A DNA stretch of 64,000 nt, taken from NCBI GenBank assembly GCA_963765765.1, contig CAVXYC010000020.1, positions 829,363 to 893,362 on the forward strand. Reading direction: 5' to 3'. A program made the translations under genes and the position numbers. Numbering within the stretch: position 1 is the first letter of the stretch; the number at the start of each line of letters is the position of its first letter. Below, piece after piece: positions 11,470-18,764 of the stretch. The stretch comes from an uncultured Chloroflexia bacterium (GTDB lineage Bacteria > Chloroflexota > UBA6077 > JACCZL01). The notes under the pieces are model-generated. The model saw only the letters and a list, made by a program, of their open reading frames with translations. It ran no database searches and was not told the DNA's origin.

Positions 11470-13401
11470 CTAGGTGCTCCCGTTTTGCCCTGGCGCTCCG
11501 TCCCGGTAGTTCCAGTATGCCGGGATGGTTTTCATGGGTGGACGCTCCATGTCTTCGAGCGCGCGTACCTCGACGTGGAATCCATCCGTGTCGTGCTGAA
11601 TCAGCTTCATGCTGGTGTTGACATCGGTGAGCAGGTGCACCCGTCGGCGCTCTTCCAGCCGACGCATCACGACCTGCAGGATCGTGAACGCCATGCCGCT
11701 CAGCGTGCTCAGCCCCTGATTCCGATGCACACGCCGCTTCAGATCAACTTGTCCGATCGCATCCAGGCCGGCGCGCTCCAGAATATCAATAAGGAGGCCC
11801 GTTTCCACGCCATAGCCAGTGAAAAACGGGAGCTGCTCCATCAATGGGCGACGGCCGGCGAACTCGCCAGCCAGCGGCTGGATGAGACCTGAGAGCTCCG
11901 GGAAAAAGAAGTTGAATAGCGGCCTGGCGGTGAGCTCGGTGACGCGTCCACCGCCTGTGGACTGCAGCGATCCGCCAACTCGGATGGGTCGCTTGTAAAA
12001 GCCCTTTACGTATTGAATACGCGGATAACGGAGCAACGGCCCGACGACACCGTACACAAACCGCGGATGGATATTCCTGATGTCGGTGTCAATCCAGGCT
12101 ACGATGTCGCCGCGCAGCACGTGCAGGCTTTTCCAGAGCGCTTCACCCTTCCCGCGACGCTCACCAACTTCTTTGGTGAGTATCTTCTGATGAATGTGAA
12201 CTGGAATGCCGAGATCAGCGGCGATCTCGCGCGTTCGGTCTTCGGATTGGCTATCGATCACCACCATCTCATCGAGCAGCGGGTAGCGGTCCACGAGGTC
12301 ACGCTTTACCGCCGCGAGAATGGCGCCAATCGTCTCCGCTTCGTTCAGCGCGGGAAGCCCCAGGCTAATGGTGATACCCTGCCGCTCCTTTAATCGCACG
12401 AGATCGGCGATGTTCTCAAACTCATCTGAATCAAACGTGTTCTCAGCGAACCACTTGTCCACTTTCGCCGTCAGATTCAGGCTCGGCGCCGCGCTCGGTC
12501 CGGTCGCCGGTGCAAGCCGCTCCCACTGCTCATGCGGGAGGTCCGCTGGCAAGCGTGTCTTGACTATCATGACGGTGCCGGGGAACGCTCCTGCGACCGA
12601 CTCAGTGATTGGACCGAAGACCGTGGCAGAGTCCGGACCGCCGGCCGCGGCGCCCATGATGATGACCTGATGGTCGCGGGCCTGCGAGAGAATGGCCTGT
12701 TCCACCGGGTCCGCGGCAACGTCAATGCGGCGAACGAGCGACTGGTCGGGCAGCGTGTTCAGCACGGCGTCGAACTCCGGGATCGACCGATACCGATTTC
12801 TGTCGCCTGGACCTACTGCCGCGACGTGCAGCGCTGTAATACGTGCCTGCTGGCGCTCGGCCATAATACCGGCCAGATGGGCAGCTAGTACGGCATTCGG
12901 CCCCCCGCGGACCGGTACGAGGATGCGGCGAATCTTGCCCCGGCCCGCGCCGCGAACTACCACGATGTCACACGGAGCGTTCGCCAGCACTTCGTCCACT
13001 GTCGTCCCGAACACTGAGTGACGTGAGTCGCTCCAGCCCTTCCAGCCCAGCATGATGAGATTGGCGCCTTCTTCGCGAGCCGCGTCAACGATCCCTTCCC
13101 AAACCTGGCGTGACACGCGTACGAGGCTTCTGAGCTCGATATTCGAGGTTGGTTGAAAGCGACGAAGGCGGCTGAGAAGGTCACGTTGCAGGCGAGCCCG
13201 AGCCGCGCCCTCGGTGAACATTGCGCTGTCCGGCACCTCAACCACGCCGAGCACGATGACCTTGGCGCGGCCCCGAGCATCAGCGCCTCCGCACAGTGCG
13301 GAGGCAATGCGCAGCAGAGGCCCAACCTGGCTGGGGTCGGCTACCGGAATCAGAATGCTCAGGTCCTGGCTTGTTACAGACCAGGAAGGAGCGTCAGACA
13401 T
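11470..13401 (-). CDS. gpgS: Glucosyl-3-phosphoglycerate synthase with N-terminal tandem universal stress protein domains
   Basis: C-terminal GT81 motifs LPALNEAETIG, GKGEALWKSL, WIDTDI, GGGRVTEL, QPLAGEFAG, GYGVE; N-terminal USP-like ILIPVAD / LIMLGW..FGTTVDEVLANAPCDIVVV / ILVPVRGGPNA; ATG 13401 overlaps the upstream stop. Confidence 0.85.
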   Translation of the reverse strand: MSDAPSWSVTSQDLSILIPVADPSQVGPLLRIASALCGGADARGRAKVIVLGVVEVPDSAMFTEGAARARLQRDLLSRLRRFQPTSNIELRSLVRVSRQVWEGIVDAAREEGANLIMLGWKGWSDSRHSVFGTTVDEVLANAPCDIVVVRGAGRGKIRRILVPVRGGPNAVLAAHLAGIMAERQQARITALHVAAVGPGDRNRYRSIPEFDAVLNTLPDQSLVRRIDVAADPVEQAILSQARDHQVIIMGAAAGGPDSATVFGPITESVAGAFPGTVMIVKTRLPADLPHEQWERLAPATGPSAAPSLNLTAKVDKWFAENTFDSDEFENIADLVRLKERQGITISLGLPALNEAETIGAILAAVKRDLVDRYPLLDEMVVIDSQSEDRTREIAADLGIPVHIHQKILTKEVGERRGKGEALWKSLHVLRGDIVAWIDTDIRNIHPRFVYGVVGPLLRYPRIQYVKGFYKRPIRVGGSLQSTGGGRVTELTARPLFNFFFPELSGLIQPLAGEFAGRRPLMEQLPFFTGYGVETGLLIDILERAGLDAIGQVDLKRRVHRNQGLSTLSGMAFTILQVVMRRLEERRRVHLLTDVNTSMKLIQHDTDGFHVEVRALEDMERPPMKTIPAYWNYRDGAPGQNGST

Positions 13402-14683
13402 GGATTCCCATCCCCGCACCGCCAGCCTCTCGAGCTGAGGCCATGGCGTCCACCATTGGTCGAAGCTGTCGCTCAAAAATCATCGACCAGTCGTACTGGC
13501 TCAGCGCGATGCGGTGCAGGCGTGCCTCTGCGTTGGTATCCAGGGTGTCCAACACGCGCTCCGCCGTATCGCTTGGTGCCTCGGTTAGATCGAAATAGTG
13601 CAAATGTTCTCCGGCAATGTCTCGGAAGGGCTGTATATCAGCGCAAAACGCGGGCAAGCGGGCAAGCCCGGCCTCTAGAATCGGCAATCCAAAACCTTCC
13701 TGGGCGGAAGGAAAGAAGAGCGCATCGGCCACGCGATAGAGCTCTCGCATCATGACATCGGAAGCGGCCCAGCTTCTACCCGATGGTCGACGGAGACGAT
13801 GAAGCATCACCAGGCTTTCAGTGACGCCTAGCGACCGGGCCATTGCGTCTAGCTCGTCCACATAGTCAATGGAGCGTGCATTATGGGGCCCTGGAGGCCC
13901 TGTTACAAGCAGAAGCGGTTGACATCCGGAATTTTTCAGTGAAGGGAGAATCCGTATTGCCTGCTCGATATTTTTACGTCGAGTAATACGTGCCGGAAGC
14001 AGCAGGAATGGATATGCGCTCCAGGCATCGATCTGACGGAGAAGATCTTGCGTCGCGCGGCTGAGACCGAGAAAGCGAGCGGCGTCGATTCCGTTGTTGA
14101 TCGCTACCACTGGCGAATCTCCGAAGAGCGCCGCAAGCTCTTTTGCTCGAAACTCTGAAACGGTCACGTAGCGAGTATGAGGAGTCGGGCGCTTGAGCAG
14201 GGTCCACGGCTCCTCTTCCCGCATCAGCGGTAGATAGAGAGGATTCGTCCACGAAAGATCGTGGCACCAGGCAATGAGATCGGTTCGACCGCGATGGGCT
14301 ATACGCTCCAGGGCGCAGGTGAGCGGAAGATTGAAATGCAGCGTGAGGGCGTTGTGCACGATGCAGATGTCGATGTCCTGGAGCGCCTCGCTCAGTGATT
14401 CGTCGATTCGGTGAACCAGCTCGTAGAAGGCCGCGCTCACAATGCCCTCCCGCAGCTCCGAGTTGATCCGCTCCAGAGCATCAAATCGGGAGTCAATAAG
14501 AGGGACTTGCCTTAGCGCGAGTCGCCGATCGAATCGGCCTCCACGCCCCACAATCGCAGTAACCGAGTATCCGGCGTCCAGGAACATTCTGGCGTGTGTG
14601 GCCAGAACAGTCTCTACGCCGCCAATGATAGGGGGGCAGCTGTAGTGCAGCATCCCCAGTCGCGGCAGCTTCGTCTGACTCAC
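13394..14683 (-). CDS. GT4 glycosyltransferase, mannosylglucosyl-3-phosphoglycerate synthase (MggA)-like
   Basis: LHYSCPPIIGGVE, HNALTLHFN, WCHD, PARITRRKNIE, FPSAQEGFGLPILEAG; translationally coupled to gpgS. Confidence 0.75.
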   Translation of the reverse strand: MSQTKLPRLGMLHYSCPPIIGGVETVLATHARMFLDAGYSVTAIVGRGGRFDRRLALRQVPLIDSRFDALERINSELREGIVSAAFYELVHRIDESLSEALQDIDICIVHNALTLHFNLPLTCALERIAHRGRTDLIAWCHDLSWTNPLYLPLMREEEPWTLLKRPTPHTRYVTVSEFRAKELAALFGDSPVVAINNGIDAARFLGLSRATQDLLRQIDAWSAYPFLLLPARITRRKNIEQAIRILPSLKNSGCQPLLLVTGPPGPHNARSIDYVDELDAMARSLGVTESLVMLHRLRRPSGRSWAASDVMMRELYRVADALFFPSAQEGFGLPILEAGLARLPAFCADIQPFRDIAGEHLHYFDLTEAPSDTAERVLDTLDTNAEARLHRIALSQYDWSMIFERQLRPMVDAMASAREAGGAGMGIHV

Positions 14684-14695
14684 CGCGCGGACCGG

Positions 14696-15371
14696 TTAGG
14701 AACCCTGACGCTCGGCCAGCACTGGCTGGCGCTCAGCGCGGCGTTCGGCCTGCTCCAGACGATGCTCCAGCTCCGCGACGCGCGCCTCAAGATGCTCGAT
14801 GACATCGAGCATCGGGTCAGGAAGTCGGGCGACCGGACGATCTTCGGGATAACGTTAGGCGCACTGTTCGTCCGGGCACTCCAACGACCGTAGAGCTGGG
14901 CGGCACGGAGGTCACAACTACCGAGCCGGCACCCACGGTGGAATCCTCGCCGACCTCGATCGCTCCGATGAGCTGGGCGTGGGAGCCAACGACCACTCCG
15001 TTGCGTAGCGTGGGGTGGCGCTTCTCTCGCAATCTACTTGTACCACCGATCGTGACGCCTTGGTGAAGCGTCACATTGTCGCCGATCTCAGACGTTTCCC
15101 CGATCACCACGCCCATACCATGATCGATGAACAATCCTTCTCCGATTCGCGCCGCGGGATGAATCTCGATGCCGGTGATGCCCCGATTCAAGTTGGAGAT
15201 CAGGCGCGGGAGAACCGGAACGTTTGCCCGGTGGAGTGCATGGGCGAGTCGATGAAACTGCCGGGCGTGAAAGCCCGGATAACACAACACGACTTCGAAG
15301 GCGGAGCTCGCCGCGGGATCGCGATCGAGCACGGCCTGGATATCTCGACGAATGCTCGCTAGCAATCCCAT
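14696..15371 (-). CDS. cysE: Serine O-acetyltransferase (apparent frameshift near 14850)
   Basis: RDPAA..EVVLCYPG, TGIEIHPAA, FIDHGMGVVIGET, KRHPTL hexapeptide repeats; shifted frame continues RLPDPMLDVIEHLEARVAELE...QGS* (stop 14696), the usual CysE tail. Confidence 0.88.
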
Positions 15372-15492
15372 TCCAAGCGCCTCTCCGGCCCCAGAATGGT
15401 AGCAGAGGGGAAAGCGATACGGGGTGAACTCACGGGGTCGCGGCTGGACTTCGGCGCTCAGAAATGGACCTGAGGGTCTCCAACGCGATGCG

Positions 15493-15960
15493 TTAGACGC
15501 GAATACGGGGGCGAATGGCAATAAAACCGTAGAGTGTCGGCTCGAACCTATTTGCGACCCGCAGATACTCCGCTTCATTGCCCTCAATCATGAGCTTGTG
15601 CATGAGTATGGTGTCCCCATCCGGAATCGGATCTACTGACTGCACGCACAGCGCCATGATGGGCACGCCGCCTTCGTACACTTTTACCTGCCCCTGGTGG
15701 CGAGGGATTCTATAGGTGCGCTTTTCTCGCGATGGGCTCCTGACCTCCAGGTAGCCACGATGATCCAGAGAGCGATACTCATCTTCGGACAGCACGTGCC
15801 GCAGGAGAGCCTCAGCTCGCTCCTGAGCCTCCCGCCACTCGGACCGACGTCCAACACCGGTGATCCCCCGCCCTGAGAGCATCCCGAAGGGTGCCCGACA
15901 CAACAGGAAGACGACGATCAGGATGAAGAGGAGCTCGATTCCAATCACGGTGACGATCAC
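15493..15960 (-). CDS. Hypothetical membrane-anchored protein, partner of the Gly-Gly-terminated protein
   Basis: N-terminal TM helix, then RAEALLR..LS..EY..L, RTYRI, LCVQ, PDGDTILMHKLMIE..EAEYLRVAN; GGAGG RBS lies inside the upstream gene end. Confidence 0.75.
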   Translation of the reverse strand: MIVTVIGIELLFILIVVFLLCRAPFGMLSGRGITGVGRRSEWREAQERAEALLRHVLSEDEYRSLDHRGYLEVRSPSREKRTYRIPRHQGQVKVYEGGVPIMALCVQSVDPIPDGDTILMHKLMIEGNEAEYLRVANRFEPTLYGFIAIRPRIRV

Positions 15961-15965
15961 CGTGC

Positions 15966-16220
15966 TTAACCTCCGGCACCTCCGGCGACTCGCGGGACCA
16001 TGATAATCTCACTGGCCGAAGGATTGAAGCTGTCGACCCGTTCGGCCGGCTTGCCTGGCGTTACGACAAACGCCGTTGCACCATGCTCGCGCTGCTCCTC
16101 AAAAATTCGCTCGGCCTCTCTCACGGCCGCGGACGCCTCAGGATCGCCCGTATCCGCGAGCTTTGAATCCCATTCCACAACCGAGTCACCCCGCGCTGAG
16201 AGAATTCGTAGTTTCGCCAT
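15966..16220 (-). CDS. Small protein ending in ...IIMVPRVAGGAGG (ThiS/MoaD/ubiquitin-like C-terminus)
   Basis: 84 aa; AAGGAG RBS; hydrophobic strand-P-x-V-A-G-G C-terminus. Confidence 0.75.
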   Translation of the reverse strand: MAKLRILSARGDSVVEWDSKLADTGDPEASAAVREAERIFEEQREHGATAFVVTPGKPAERVDSFNPSASEIIMVPRVAGGAGG

Positions 16221-16363
16221 CCCGTGCTCCTTCCCCGGAAGTCATTCGAACAGCAGTTGAGCCCGCCGCGCCCCGCGGCCTGCCCGTCAAATCAACCAGC
16301 GCCCCAGTCGCCCTGCCTACCTCAAGGTAGCTCCCAAGCAGACGAAAAGGCGCTCATACTGGC

Positions 16364-16391
16364 AGTATATCGCCGACGATTTACTTGTCAA
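16364..16391 (-). promoter_or_regulatory. Sigma70-type promoter for the Gly-Gly protein operon
   Basis: Minus strand TTGACA (16391-16386), 16-nt spacer, TATACT (16369-16364). Confidence 0.6.
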
Positions 16392-16528
16392 TGACTACAT
16401 CAACGCCCTTGGGGGCAGTCCGTTCATAGCCTCCATACGCCCACATCACTACTCGCTGAATCGGCCTTCAAGCGCCAATCGCCTTGCACGACGCGTGCCA
16501 ATCGGGCATTCCGAAACCAGAGATCTAA

Positions 16529-16564
16529 AAGATAAAGGGCGACCCTAGGATCGCCCTTTATCTT
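16529..16564. terminator. Intrinsic terminator after the efflux adaptor gene
   Basis: AAGATAAAGGGCGA-ccctagga-TCGCCCTTTATCTT; T-run follows on the minus strand. Confidence 0.75.
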
Positions 16565-16605
16565 CAATTGCACTGGATTTAGCGGCAAGCTCTGCCGCGA
16601 CCGAT

Positions 16606-18764
16606 TTAACCCTCGGGACTCTCTCCCGCAAGCGAATTGCTATTCCTTACCTGGACCGGACTGCCATCATTTAGCACGTCCAATCCCGAGGTTGCCACAA
16701 CGGCATCTCCACTAAGGCCCTGAACGATCTCAGTTCGCTGGCCATCGGAAACTCCGGTAGTCACCTCACGCAGACGCACCTGGTTGTCCTGCAGCAGGAA
16801 TACCACGGTTCGACCTGAGCGTGTTGCCAGCGCCTGATTGGGTACCAGTAGCGTCGCTCGCGGTGGGGCCGTCACGCTTACCTGAGCGAACATTCCATCT
16901 CTCAGTTTTCCCTCTGGATCGTTGGGCAAAATGCGGACGGCAAACGTACGGGAACGTGGATCCGCTGTCGGTGCGACACTCGCTACTTGCGCCGGAACTG
17001 GCTGCCCCGGGTATGCCGCGACGCTGACCTGAGCGGGCTGGCCCGCACGGAGCTGACCAATGCGCGCTTCCTCGACCTGAAGTACGATCTCCACGTCCCG
17101 GGAGACAAGCTGAACAACTGGGGTATTTGGTGCCACAATGGCCCCAGGGCTCACGAACTTCTGCGCCACCACGCCCTTGAAGGGTGCACGGACGAGAGAT
17201 TCACCCTGCTGTACCTTTGATGCTTCGAGTGCAGCCGAGGCCTGGTCAACCTGCGAGGCCGCGATGAGTATGTCCTCCGCGGTGAACGGTCGCTTGCGAG
17301 CATCGAGCTGAGCCTGCGTCTGATCGACCTGAGCCTGAGACGCACGAACGTCGTACGAGCTCACGTTGATTAGCCTGCTCAACGTTGCCTGCTCGCGGGA
17401 AAGCGCTTCCTCGGCTCCACGAACGTCGAAGTCACTTGGGAAGCGGGCCGAATCGACACGCGCTTGGGTGGCGTCGACGTTTGTTTGTGCACTTTCGACC
17501 TGGGCGCCTAACCGGTCCACTTCAGCCTTCGCCTGGCCAACTCGAAGCTCGAGCGTGGCCAGATCGTCGTCCCACCGAACCTCAGCTTGGCAAGGTTGGC
17601 TTCGCGCTCGCGGATCACGGACTCCTGCTGCTGAAGCTCCTGAACCGTGGGTCCATTTCTCGTCTTCTCGAGCTGAGTCACGGCCGCCTGAACGGCGACC
17701 TCAGCGCCAGAAACAAGATTGGAAAGTCGCTCACGCTCAGAGCTAGGACAATCCTGACGGCTGCGAGATTCGTTGTTGCTCTTCGACGTGGAGCTCGATG
17801 AGCCAATAGCGTTCTTCGTTGACGTCCTGTTCGTGGACTCACTCCGCGTAGTGGTCGTCGTCTTGCCGCAGGCGTCAAGGGCATCCTTCGCAGCCTCGAG
17901 GAGAACGCGCTGGCGTTCAACCTCAAGCTGGGACGATCGTAAGTCCTCGGGACGCGGCGTGTTCTTGAGCTGGTCCAAACGTTGCTTGGCGTTATCGACC
18001 TGTGCCTGAGCAGCGGCGATGTCTTCGACACGAGTGCCTGGACCGCCAAGTCCTTGCTGGGCTTGATTGAAGCGGTAGTTTGCTTCTTCGTAGACGGCTC
18101 TGGCCGCCGCGTGCTGAGCTCGAACGGCCTCTACGGCGGACCGAGCCTGATCTACCGCGGCCTGCAAGGGCGCGAGATCATCGTCCTTAGCGCCACTTCG
18201 AACCTGCTCCAGGCGATTCGAAGCGGCATTTACCACAGCTCGCTGGCCCTGGACTTCCTCCGGCCTAGCTCCGGAGCGAACCTGCTCCAATCGAGCTTGA
18301 GCACTCCGTACGCCAGCCTCAGCGGCGGAAATGTCCTCTATCTTGGCGCCCGCTTGTGTCGAGGTCAGGCGAGCCTGAGCCACGCTCACCGCGGCCTCCG
18401 CCTGGGTCACCTGCGCATCGAGCGTCGCATGGTCGAGCTCGCCGATGACCTCGCCCACGTCCAGCTCGTCGCCAATGTCAGCGTAGAGCTGTTCCAGGCG
18501 TCCCTGCACCTTAGGTACAACGTTGACTGAAGCGCGGCTTTGAACGTTCCCTGAATAGGCTAGCAAGGCACCAATGTCACCAAGCTGCACTGGAGCCGTC
18601 GTTACCTGCACGGCTGGGGGGCCACTTCGCTCCGGTTTTGCTGCAGGCTGTTGCGGCGCAAATGGACCAATGCACCCGGCGACCAGCCCTGTAGCCAGCG
18701 TTGCACCGAGCACCAGACTCAGCCGCCGGCCTGCTCCGCTCTGTGGGATTCTCGCTGTGGTCAT
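16606..18764 (-). CDS. Efflux RND/ABC periplasmic adaptor (membrane fusion protein) lipoprotein with very long coiled coil; frameshift near 17560-17575
   Basis: Lipobox LVAG-C; VVPKVQGRLEQLYADIGD; heptad repeats; VRAPFKGVV, DPRSRTF, LRDGMFA, LLVPNQAL, VTTGVSDG in the second ORF. Confidence 0.85.

Follow-up and report, generated by a model that had tools for sequence, protein, structure and literature searches.

In the SAMP/UbaA and Thermus TtuB/TtuC systems, a beta-grasp protein ending in Gly-Gly is served by a shared housekeeping E1 whose gene is not adjacent to its own, and no dedicated E3 takes part. We know of no E2-like partner in these systems or in Urm1/Uba4, and to our knowledge the modifiers of all three match ThiS/MoaD-type models. 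As described in the available part of one report (PMC11601596), Bub operons encode their own, peptidase-fused E1 together with a serine protease and use oxyester intermediates, while Bil (BilABCD) and type II CBASS (Cap2/Cap3) are, in the available part of another (PMC10557695), defence operons that are mobile and encode both an E1 and a JAB peptidase. Operons with E1-like and JAB proteins are likewise the setting in which Iyer, Burroughs and Aravind (2006; PMC1779556, available part) place the E2-like and RWD-like domains of prokaryotes, and the conserved cysteine is reported there to be absent from bacterial RWD-like domains. The subject of the present analysis is a two-gene unit on the minus strand of a 64-kb stretch of DNA from an uncultured Chloroflexia bacterium of soil (the whole of which is referred to here as the window), consisting of an open reading frame (ORF) for a small Gly-Gly-ended ubiquitin-like protein (Ubl; 15966..16220) and an ORF for a membrane-anchored partner (15493..15960); these and all other window features given below are on the minus strand. 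An earlier note, prepared from the sequence of the window alone, had described a coupled pair of this kind with neither an E1 nor a JAB protein nearby, and both observations were confirmed: the neighbours in the window are of the HlyD, GT4 and Usp-GT2 types, and a Pfam scan of 35 flanking proteins from 14 diverse loci revealed no ThiF or JAB protein.

An operon-encoded ThiF-type E1 accompanied by a deconjugating peptidase, the combination that marks Bil, Bub and CBASS operons, was not found at the pair. As far as Bub operons are covered by the available part of the source, the pair differs from them in having no linked E1 or protease, a Cys as the conserved residue, a membrane-anchored E2-like protein and no sequence similarity. 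Within the same limit, it differs from Bil and CBASS in lacking both E1 and JAB, in having no PADLOC match, in being present in all or none of the genomes of a taxonomic family and in usually occurring in two copies per genome. As in SAMP/UbaA, TtuB/TtuC and Urm1/Uba4, the Gly-Gly-ended beta-grasp protein would use a shared, unlinked housekeeping E1 and no dedicated E3; unlike the modifiers of those systems, this Ubl has an E2-like partner and no ThiS/MoaD-type match. Compared with ThiS, MoaD and CysO (PF02597), it has no family match at E <= 1 and neither an adjacent synthase nor an adjacent E1, its conserved partner being an E2/RWD-like membrane protein. We tentatively propose that the pair constitutes a minimal two-component tagging module, composed of a Ubl and an E2-like protein, that uses a housekeeping ThiF/MoeB-type E1; this proposal, in which we infer the covalent chemistry, the E1 and the targets, falls a little short of being probable.

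Both ORFs are judged to be real genes from their homologues and from the conservation of amino acids despite synonymous codon change. The Ubl has 382 homologues at E <= 1e-3, and all of those with a source name are from Chloroflexota. Family members are 81 aa long and end in ...VPR[VI][AV]GG. Residues G11, G47, G80 and G81 do not vary among 42 sequences, the most distant of which share 26% identity, and the last two are invariant in both A1 and A3, the alignments made of the Ubl. Among 70 full-length copies drawn from the loci analysed here, a stop codon directly follows Gly-Gly in 66, and short extensions, of types including AGG, TA and VS, are present in four; moreover, 117 of 120 close database homologues terminate in GG. 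Since Gly-Gly is encoded by 16 different codon pairs in these 70 copies, with GGAGGN occurring in just 16 of them, the tail is selected at the protein level. The possibility raised in the earlier note, that Gly-Gly is a by-product of an overlapping GGAGG Shine-Dalgarno sequence, was rejected on the same grounds.

The Ubl of the window is 84 aa long and possesses a free C-terminal end of the form ...VPRVAGG(AGG) (...IIMVPRVAGGAGG). Its additional AGG is the product of a perfect 9-nt tandem duplication (GCCGGAGGT twice; 15969..15986) that can be read directly from the sequence, the family Ubl being without these three residues. As the duplication adds AGG after the terminal AGG of the family, the window protein is still Gly-Gly-ended. 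The GG tail that had been noted for an 84-aa protein was thus upheld, whereas the length is not that of the family and the last AGG derives from the duplication. Contigs of relatives in metatranscriptome runs X11, X14 and X18 omit the nine letters at 15969, and a near-identical X6 contig retains them.

An AlphaFold2 (AF2) model of the Ubl, with a mean predicted local distance difference test (pLDDT) score of 89.4 and a score below 50 for residues 81-84 of the tail, was shown to contain strands 2-6, 13-17, 49-53, 60-62 and 71-75 and a helix at 27-45, in the order strand-strand-helix-strand-strand-strand. Structural matches were all weak and all beta-grasp, including MoaD, TtuB, a Caldiarchaeum Ubl, ISG15 and chain C of 9eav. 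A beta-grasp fold, which the earlier note had wished to see checked, is therefore present in the model, together with the C-terminal Gly-Gly. Searches of Pfam and NCBIfam returned no family for the Ubl at E <= 1, ThiS/MoaD (PF02597) included, and Foldseek comparison with the PDB gave no significant match for either the Ubl or the partner model.

The partner is 155 aa long, begins with a GTG codon 5 nt past the stop codon of the Ubl gene and is predicted to consist of an N-terminal membrane anchor and a cytoplasmic E2/RWD-like domain; 166 homologues were found (E <= 1e-3). The transmembrane helix previously noted at its N-terminus was borne out: a membrane helix is predicted at residues ~2-24 (15889..15957) and modelled as helix 2-29, and 114 of 120 close homologues have an N-terminal segment that is hydrophobic on the Kyte-Doolittle scale. 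No positive charge lies ahead of this helix and several lie behind it, so that the domain would lie in the cytoplasm. The domain itself (residues 36-139; 15544..15855) comprises two helices, a four-stranded meander and two further helices, the AF2 model (pLDDT 83.4) containing helices 2-29, 36-56 and 59-68, four strands between residues 70 and 105, and helices 114-127 and 129-135. In a fold comparison, at least 12 of the 50 structural matches listed are RWD or E2-type by title, all matches being weak; RWD domains are the top matches, and the titles include UBE2E1, Atg10, UBE2O, UbcH10, CdnG-E2 and UbcH5b. Of the roles that had been suggested for the partner (ligase, protease or target), it looks like the ligase in its modelled, weakly matched RWD/E2-like fold.

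In alignment A2 (26 sequences), the invariant partner residues include C105, P113, D114, D116, H121-E126, E129, Y132, L133, A136 and N137. In alignment A4, which holds 26 partner-domain sequences including divergent and phage-type members (in partner numbering), residues Y83, C105, P113, L123 and E129 are invariant, and D116, A136 and N137 nearly so. Cys105 (codon 15646..15648) is accordingly conserved in 26/26 sequences of A2 and 26/26 of A4. In the model, Cys105 lies at the end of the fourth strand (99-105) and at the start of the loop that leads to helix 114-127, an E2-like position for a catalytic Cys; we take this to be the start of the loop that bears the catalytic Cys in E2 enzymes. The invariance of Cys105 sets the partner apart from RWD and UEV domains and from the E2-like fold of FANCL.

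Complex prediction, for which partner residues 34-145 and the Ubl were each supplied as an alignment, supports, but does not demonstrate, binding of the two proteins to each other. The interaction prediction score from aligned errors (ipSAE) was 0.86, 0.86 and 0.87, and the best of three controls reached 0.01; the mark applied to this score is passed by 116 of 157 solved complexes and 2 of 215 mismatched pairs and is rough here, own alignments having been used. The runs share at least 97% of contacts, with a Ubl pLDDT of at least 91. The predicted interface involves partner residues 105-113, 116, 119-128 and 131-137 and Ubl residues 5, 7-12, 49-61, 73 and 75-83, and contains 14 of 30 invariant Ubl residues and 11 of 25 invariant partner residues. 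Ubl residue 78 is contacted by partner residue 106, which, together with the interface residues, places the Ubl tail (residues 75-83) on the Cys loop (partner residues 105-113), the arrangement that the earlier note had suggested looking for by co-folding. PDB sequence-profile searches with both proteins gave irrelevant matches only (E >= 0.04), with no E2 for the partner; as neither protein has a sequence relative in the PDB, the complex is unlikely to have passed from model memory. One invariant face of the Ubl helix (EAERIF) takes no part in the predicted interface and may serve to bind another partner, for instance an E1.

Co-occurrence of the two genes was examined in 301 Chloroflexota genomes, sampled evenly. 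Profiles of the Ubl and of the partner domain match the same 67 genomes (two of which, G038 and G181, are unpublished), with identical tallies per family and per genus, and the two matches are neighbours on shared contigs. A family has the pair in all of its sampled genomes or in none (e.g. 4/4 in f1 and 5/5 in f19, compared with 0/20 in f20 and 0/18 in f24), and most carrier genomes have two pairs. Each of 28 low-scoring, divergent Ubl matches adjoins a low-scoring partner match on the same contig, indicating that the pairs diverged together. At the level of loci, 73 were compared (that of the window, its paralogue and 71 related loci from reference genomes), and the partner domain is present in 62, almost always directly downstream on the same strand. 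The remaining 11 comprise three at a contig edge, one fragment and seven true solo Ubl copies, two of the seven being from metagenome-assembled genomes (MAGs) with a full pair elsewhere. When ORFs within 6 kb of the Ubl gene were clustered over the 73 loci, the partner was the sole conserved neighbour. The flanking proteins mentioned above include histidine kinases, Ser/Thr kinases, CheA/CheB, Dxs and Rho. Overall, none of three outcomes fixed beforehand as refuting, namely a non-conserved Gly-Gly, a lack of co-occurrence or the absence of a predicted interaction, was observed.

Taken as a tagging module, the pair would operate in four steps. The small beta-grasp protein would be synthesised with its ...PR-V-A-G-G carboxyl end free; adenylation by a housekeeping ThiF/MoeB-type E1, whose gene would lie at another genomic site, would follow; Cys105 of the partner would then receive the activated Ubl in thioester linkage; and the Ubl would finally be moved from Cys105 to protein lysines or another amine close to the membrane. 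The E2/RWD-like domain would be held at the cytoplasmic membrane face by the single N-terminal helix. An E1 is, to judge from profile matches, available in trans: ThiF scores over cut-off in 272 of the 301 Chloroflexota genomes, and 66 of the 67 carrier genomes have a ThiF match at E <= 1e-22 (tallies that include the unpublished G038, G181, G162 and G258).

Several observations weigh against this proposal. The near-universal presence of ThiF in the phylum says little and singles out no dedicated E1; in addition, no ThiF (PF00899) match over cut-off was found in the window's own assembly (92% complete). As a genome of the same genus has three ThiF matches, the latter absence probably reflects a gap in the assembly. 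Neither an E1 nor a JAB or other protease is linked to the pair, whether among the clustered ORFs of the 73 loci or among the 35 flanking proteins scanned, and no Prok-JAB match was found in the window's own genome. Regarding the partner, His121 is not conserved in the divergent members of A4, and an HPN motif was not seen in A2 or A4, a conserved Asn (N137) being located downstream of Cys105 instead. The partner has no sequence match over cut-off to UQ_con, Prok-E2 or any other Pfam family, its sole Pfam match at E <= 1 being to DUF6313, below the cut-off of that family. The E2 relatives RWD and UEV are binding domains without catalytic activity. The support for tagging is computational throughout, consisting of sequence comparison and modelling, and the covalent step is a prediction.

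In a rival explanation, which we regard as unlikely, the two proteins form a non-covalent docking pair, in which an RWD/UEV-like domain binds the Ubl, including its tail, and thereby tethers it and any fused or bound cargo to the membrane, to FtsZ or to a receiver or sigma-54 module, Cys105 being structural or redox-sensing rather than catalytic. The non-catalytic RWD domains at the top of the fold matches, a predicted complex that displays tight binding and no chemistry, and the absence of any E1 or protease linked to the pair are all in keeping with docking, and ubiquitin is bound non-covalently by the E2-like fold of FANCL (PMC4543658, available part). The same may be said of natural fusions. 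In 14 protein clusters (237-238 aa; P0388-P0403), the Ubl sequence ...VPRVAGG continues straight into a full GreA (PF03449, PF01272), which leaves the carboxylate blocked. These proteins resemble ubiquitin-fusion precursors; none was found in the 301 sampled genomes or in a metagenome scan. The partner domain is itself fused to FtsZ, to REC or REC-ANTAR, to Sigma54_DBD or to pentapeptide repeats, with no membrane anchor in these proteins, and such fusions suit a plain binding pair equally well. Some of them could be gene-calling merges. Docking nevertheless leaves unexplained why the Gly-Gly end is exact in 66 of 70 copies and preceded by Arg at position -4, why the duplication in the window restores that end, and why a single Cys is invariant even in phage-type members when most of the domain varies. 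The interpretation given in the earlier note is, as judged from sequence and models, partly supported, with the GG-blocking fusions keeping the non-covalent explanation alive.

A second rival, decidedly improbable in our estimation, is a sulfur carrier or persulfide relay of the Urm1/TtuB/SAMP type, in which a rhodanese-bearing E1 would thiocarboxylate the Gly-Gly end and the sulfur would pass to Cys105, or the Ubl would be conjugated without an E2. Many ThiF matches of the phylum lie in open frames of ~400 aa, a length compatible with a putative second domain such as rhodanese, and in the available part of PMC9574740 the Urm1 thiocarboxylate is described as conjugating without E2 or E3 and as persulfidating target cysteines. 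A cysE gene (14817..15371; TIGR01172, E 1.3e-67) downstream of the pair had led the earlier note to hint at a sulfur relay. However, cysE is adjacent in only 6 of the 71 related loci, on which basis a conserved cysE link was rejected, and the hint found no further backing, neither protein matching ThiS/MoaD or another Pfam or NCBIfam model over cut-off. Further points against a relay are the lack of a PF02597 or NCBIfam match for the Ubl at E <= 1, the six PF02597 matches already present elsewhere in the genome of the window, and the homologous pair of a huge phage described below, where a role in cofactor sulfur is less likely; nor was a synthase of the MoaE, ThiG, CysM or TtuA type found among the 35 flanking proteins scanned.

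The order Cys-His-Asn formed by Cys105, His121 and Asn137, which are invariant in the main subfamily, raises a third explanation: the partner could be a Gly-Gly-specific cysteine peptidase or transpeptidase that trims extensions of, or fusions to, the Ubl (AGG, TA, VS or GreA). Such an activity would accord with the short extensions in four of the 70 copies, with GreA following GG in the 14 clusters and with the predicted complex, where the tail rests on the Cys loop. Against it, the other 66 copies would need no trimming, His121 is replaced in divergent and phage-type members, and the modelled fold is unlike known cysteine peptidases; a transpeptidase would presumably also have no energy source if its substrate already ended in GG. 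A peptidase is consequently the explanation to which we attach very little credence.

Relatives of the pair were also identified in phages. The window partner matches the 595-kb uncultured phage LR756511.1 (E 7e-6), in which a Ubl-like ORF ending in QVAGG lies upstream of a 258-aa partner-domain protein with the motif RLCVV. Profile comparison with hhalign between the Chloroflexota and LR756511.1 proteins yielded probabilities of 97.9% for the Ubl (E 4.9e-13) and 98.4% for the partner (E 7.2e-15). Together with the identical sets of 67 carrier genomes, this homologous pair bears out the conserved pairing, phages included, that the earlier note had proposed to check. A weaker homologous pair is found on an 82-kb IMG/VR contig, the sole locus recovered from an IMG/VR scan with the Ubl alignment; a pattern scan of IMG/VR with partner alignment A2 did not find the Chloroflexota-type partner, and no named phage was matched by the IMG/VR phage partner in a tblastn search. 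Structural relatives in BFVD include A0A1P8DIP4 (E 6.3e-7) and one from Agrobacterium phage Atu_ph07. The phage pairs share with the Chloroflexota pairs the two homologous domains, the gene order, the Gly-Gly end of the Ubl, the conserved partner Cys and the absence of an E1. Conversely, the branch to which the window belongs is chromosomal, with a presence that tracks taxonomic family within Chloroflexota; and the Chloroflexota partner begins with a membrane helix, while phage partners have other N-terminal regions, of 150-260 aa. A mobile defence role of the Chloroflexota branch appears unlikely, because its presence is all-or-none by family, PADLOC gives no match and the neighbouring genes are ordinary.

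A fuller version of the tagging proposal, which we consider doubtful, is that the Ubl and a membrane-tethered mini-E2 borrow a sulfur-pathway E1 and, on the cytoplasmic side of the membrane of aerobic Chloroflexota, tag proteins or the amine of a membrane lipid, with no E3 or dedicated protease, and that the relatives in huge phages tag host or phage proteins. Atg8 is an example of a Ubl that tags a membrane lipid amine. Should tagging occur, the GreA, FtsZ, receiver and sigma-54 fusions would point to clients in transcription, division and signalling, and the pair, with its Ubl, mini-E2 and borrowed E1, would represent the simplest ubiquitin-like cascade known in free-living bacteria and would bear on the origin of E2-dependent tagging from sulfur-carrier chemistry. 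If the proteins only bind, they would still form a docking pair of wide distribution, by which proteins are tethered to the membrane, FtsZ or signalling modules. In either case, the partner domain defines a large nameless family: its profile matches 9576 cluster representatives at E <= 1e-3 (3794 at E <= 1e-10), a hydrophobic anchor being present in 114 of the best 150. Neither protein of the pair matches a family over cut-off in Pfam or NCBIfam, and none was found in PHROGs or PADLOC; ESM Atlas returned unnamed Chloroflexota clusters only, and a full-text literature search found no paper on such a pair, although subscription journals and supplements could contain more. The pair is present in the cultured strain Ktedonobacter racemifer and in cultured Thermogemmatispora species, which makes it directly testable.

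With respect to expression, a promoter-like sequence (TTGACA-N16-TATACT; 16391..16364) is located ~140 nt upstream of the Ubl ATG. The near-consensus promoter reported in the earlier note is thus present, with 11 of 12 positions matching, and is plausible; however, it is the sole match in a 2-kb scan (14700-16700) for which shuffled sequences give an expectation of 0.8, and the match by itself is not beyond chance. No terminator-like site was found in the same interval, and an Rfam scan over 15300-16700 gave nothing except a chance-level match to MicX. Contigs from four soil metatranscriptome runs (four studies) span 15445-16367 and run across the boundary from one gene to the other, one relative's contig extending to 16367, near the promoter-like site, which is a weak hint in its favour. 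These contigs are sequences of relatives in RNA libraries that may contain DNA, and they are consistent with a transcribed two-gene unit, short of proof.

Upstream of the pair in the window lie an HlyD-type membrane-fusion gene (16606-17520) and, beyond it, an ORF at 17508-18764. Downstream, cysE is followed by genes for a GT4 glycosyltransferase and a Usp-GT2 fusion protein (11470-15371 for the three). Recurrence of this trio is confined to close relatives (5-7 of the 71 related loci), the GT4 gene occurring in 7/71. The genome of the window carries a second pair on another contig (L004; G000:C14:310851-314096), with an 81-aa Ubl ending in VPRVAGG (1501-1746) and a 159-aa partner (1750-2229), followed by a broken partner duplicate in two frames (2566-2984). 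The anchor-less partner-domain fusions described above are represented by P0328, P0325, P0378, P0381, P0344, P0352, P0301, P0324 and P0333.

Four loci (L068, L069, L071 and L072), from Thermomicrobiales-labelled MAGs and one Chloroflexia-labelled MAG, encode a divergent solo Ubl ending in APRLMGG, with no partner in the locus. In two of these, L069 and L072, the solo Ubl is followed ~240-420 nt downstream by an ORF of the same strand that encodes 916-1011 aa, the L072 protein carrying Helicase_C_3 and WYL domains. Pairs or Ubls were also observed in MAGs labelled Sphingomonadaceae, Rubrobacter, Armatimonadota, Proteobacteria or Nealsonbacteria (L014, L022, L040, L048, L051 and L060), and these may be mis-binned contigs or transfers. 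Finally, an outlying non-Chloroflexota pair (L075:2949-5251), on a contig labelled Noviherbaspirillum, consists of a Ubl ending in VPRIAGG and a 207-aa partner that lacks the typical anchor, with a gene for a calcineurin-like phosphoesterase after it.

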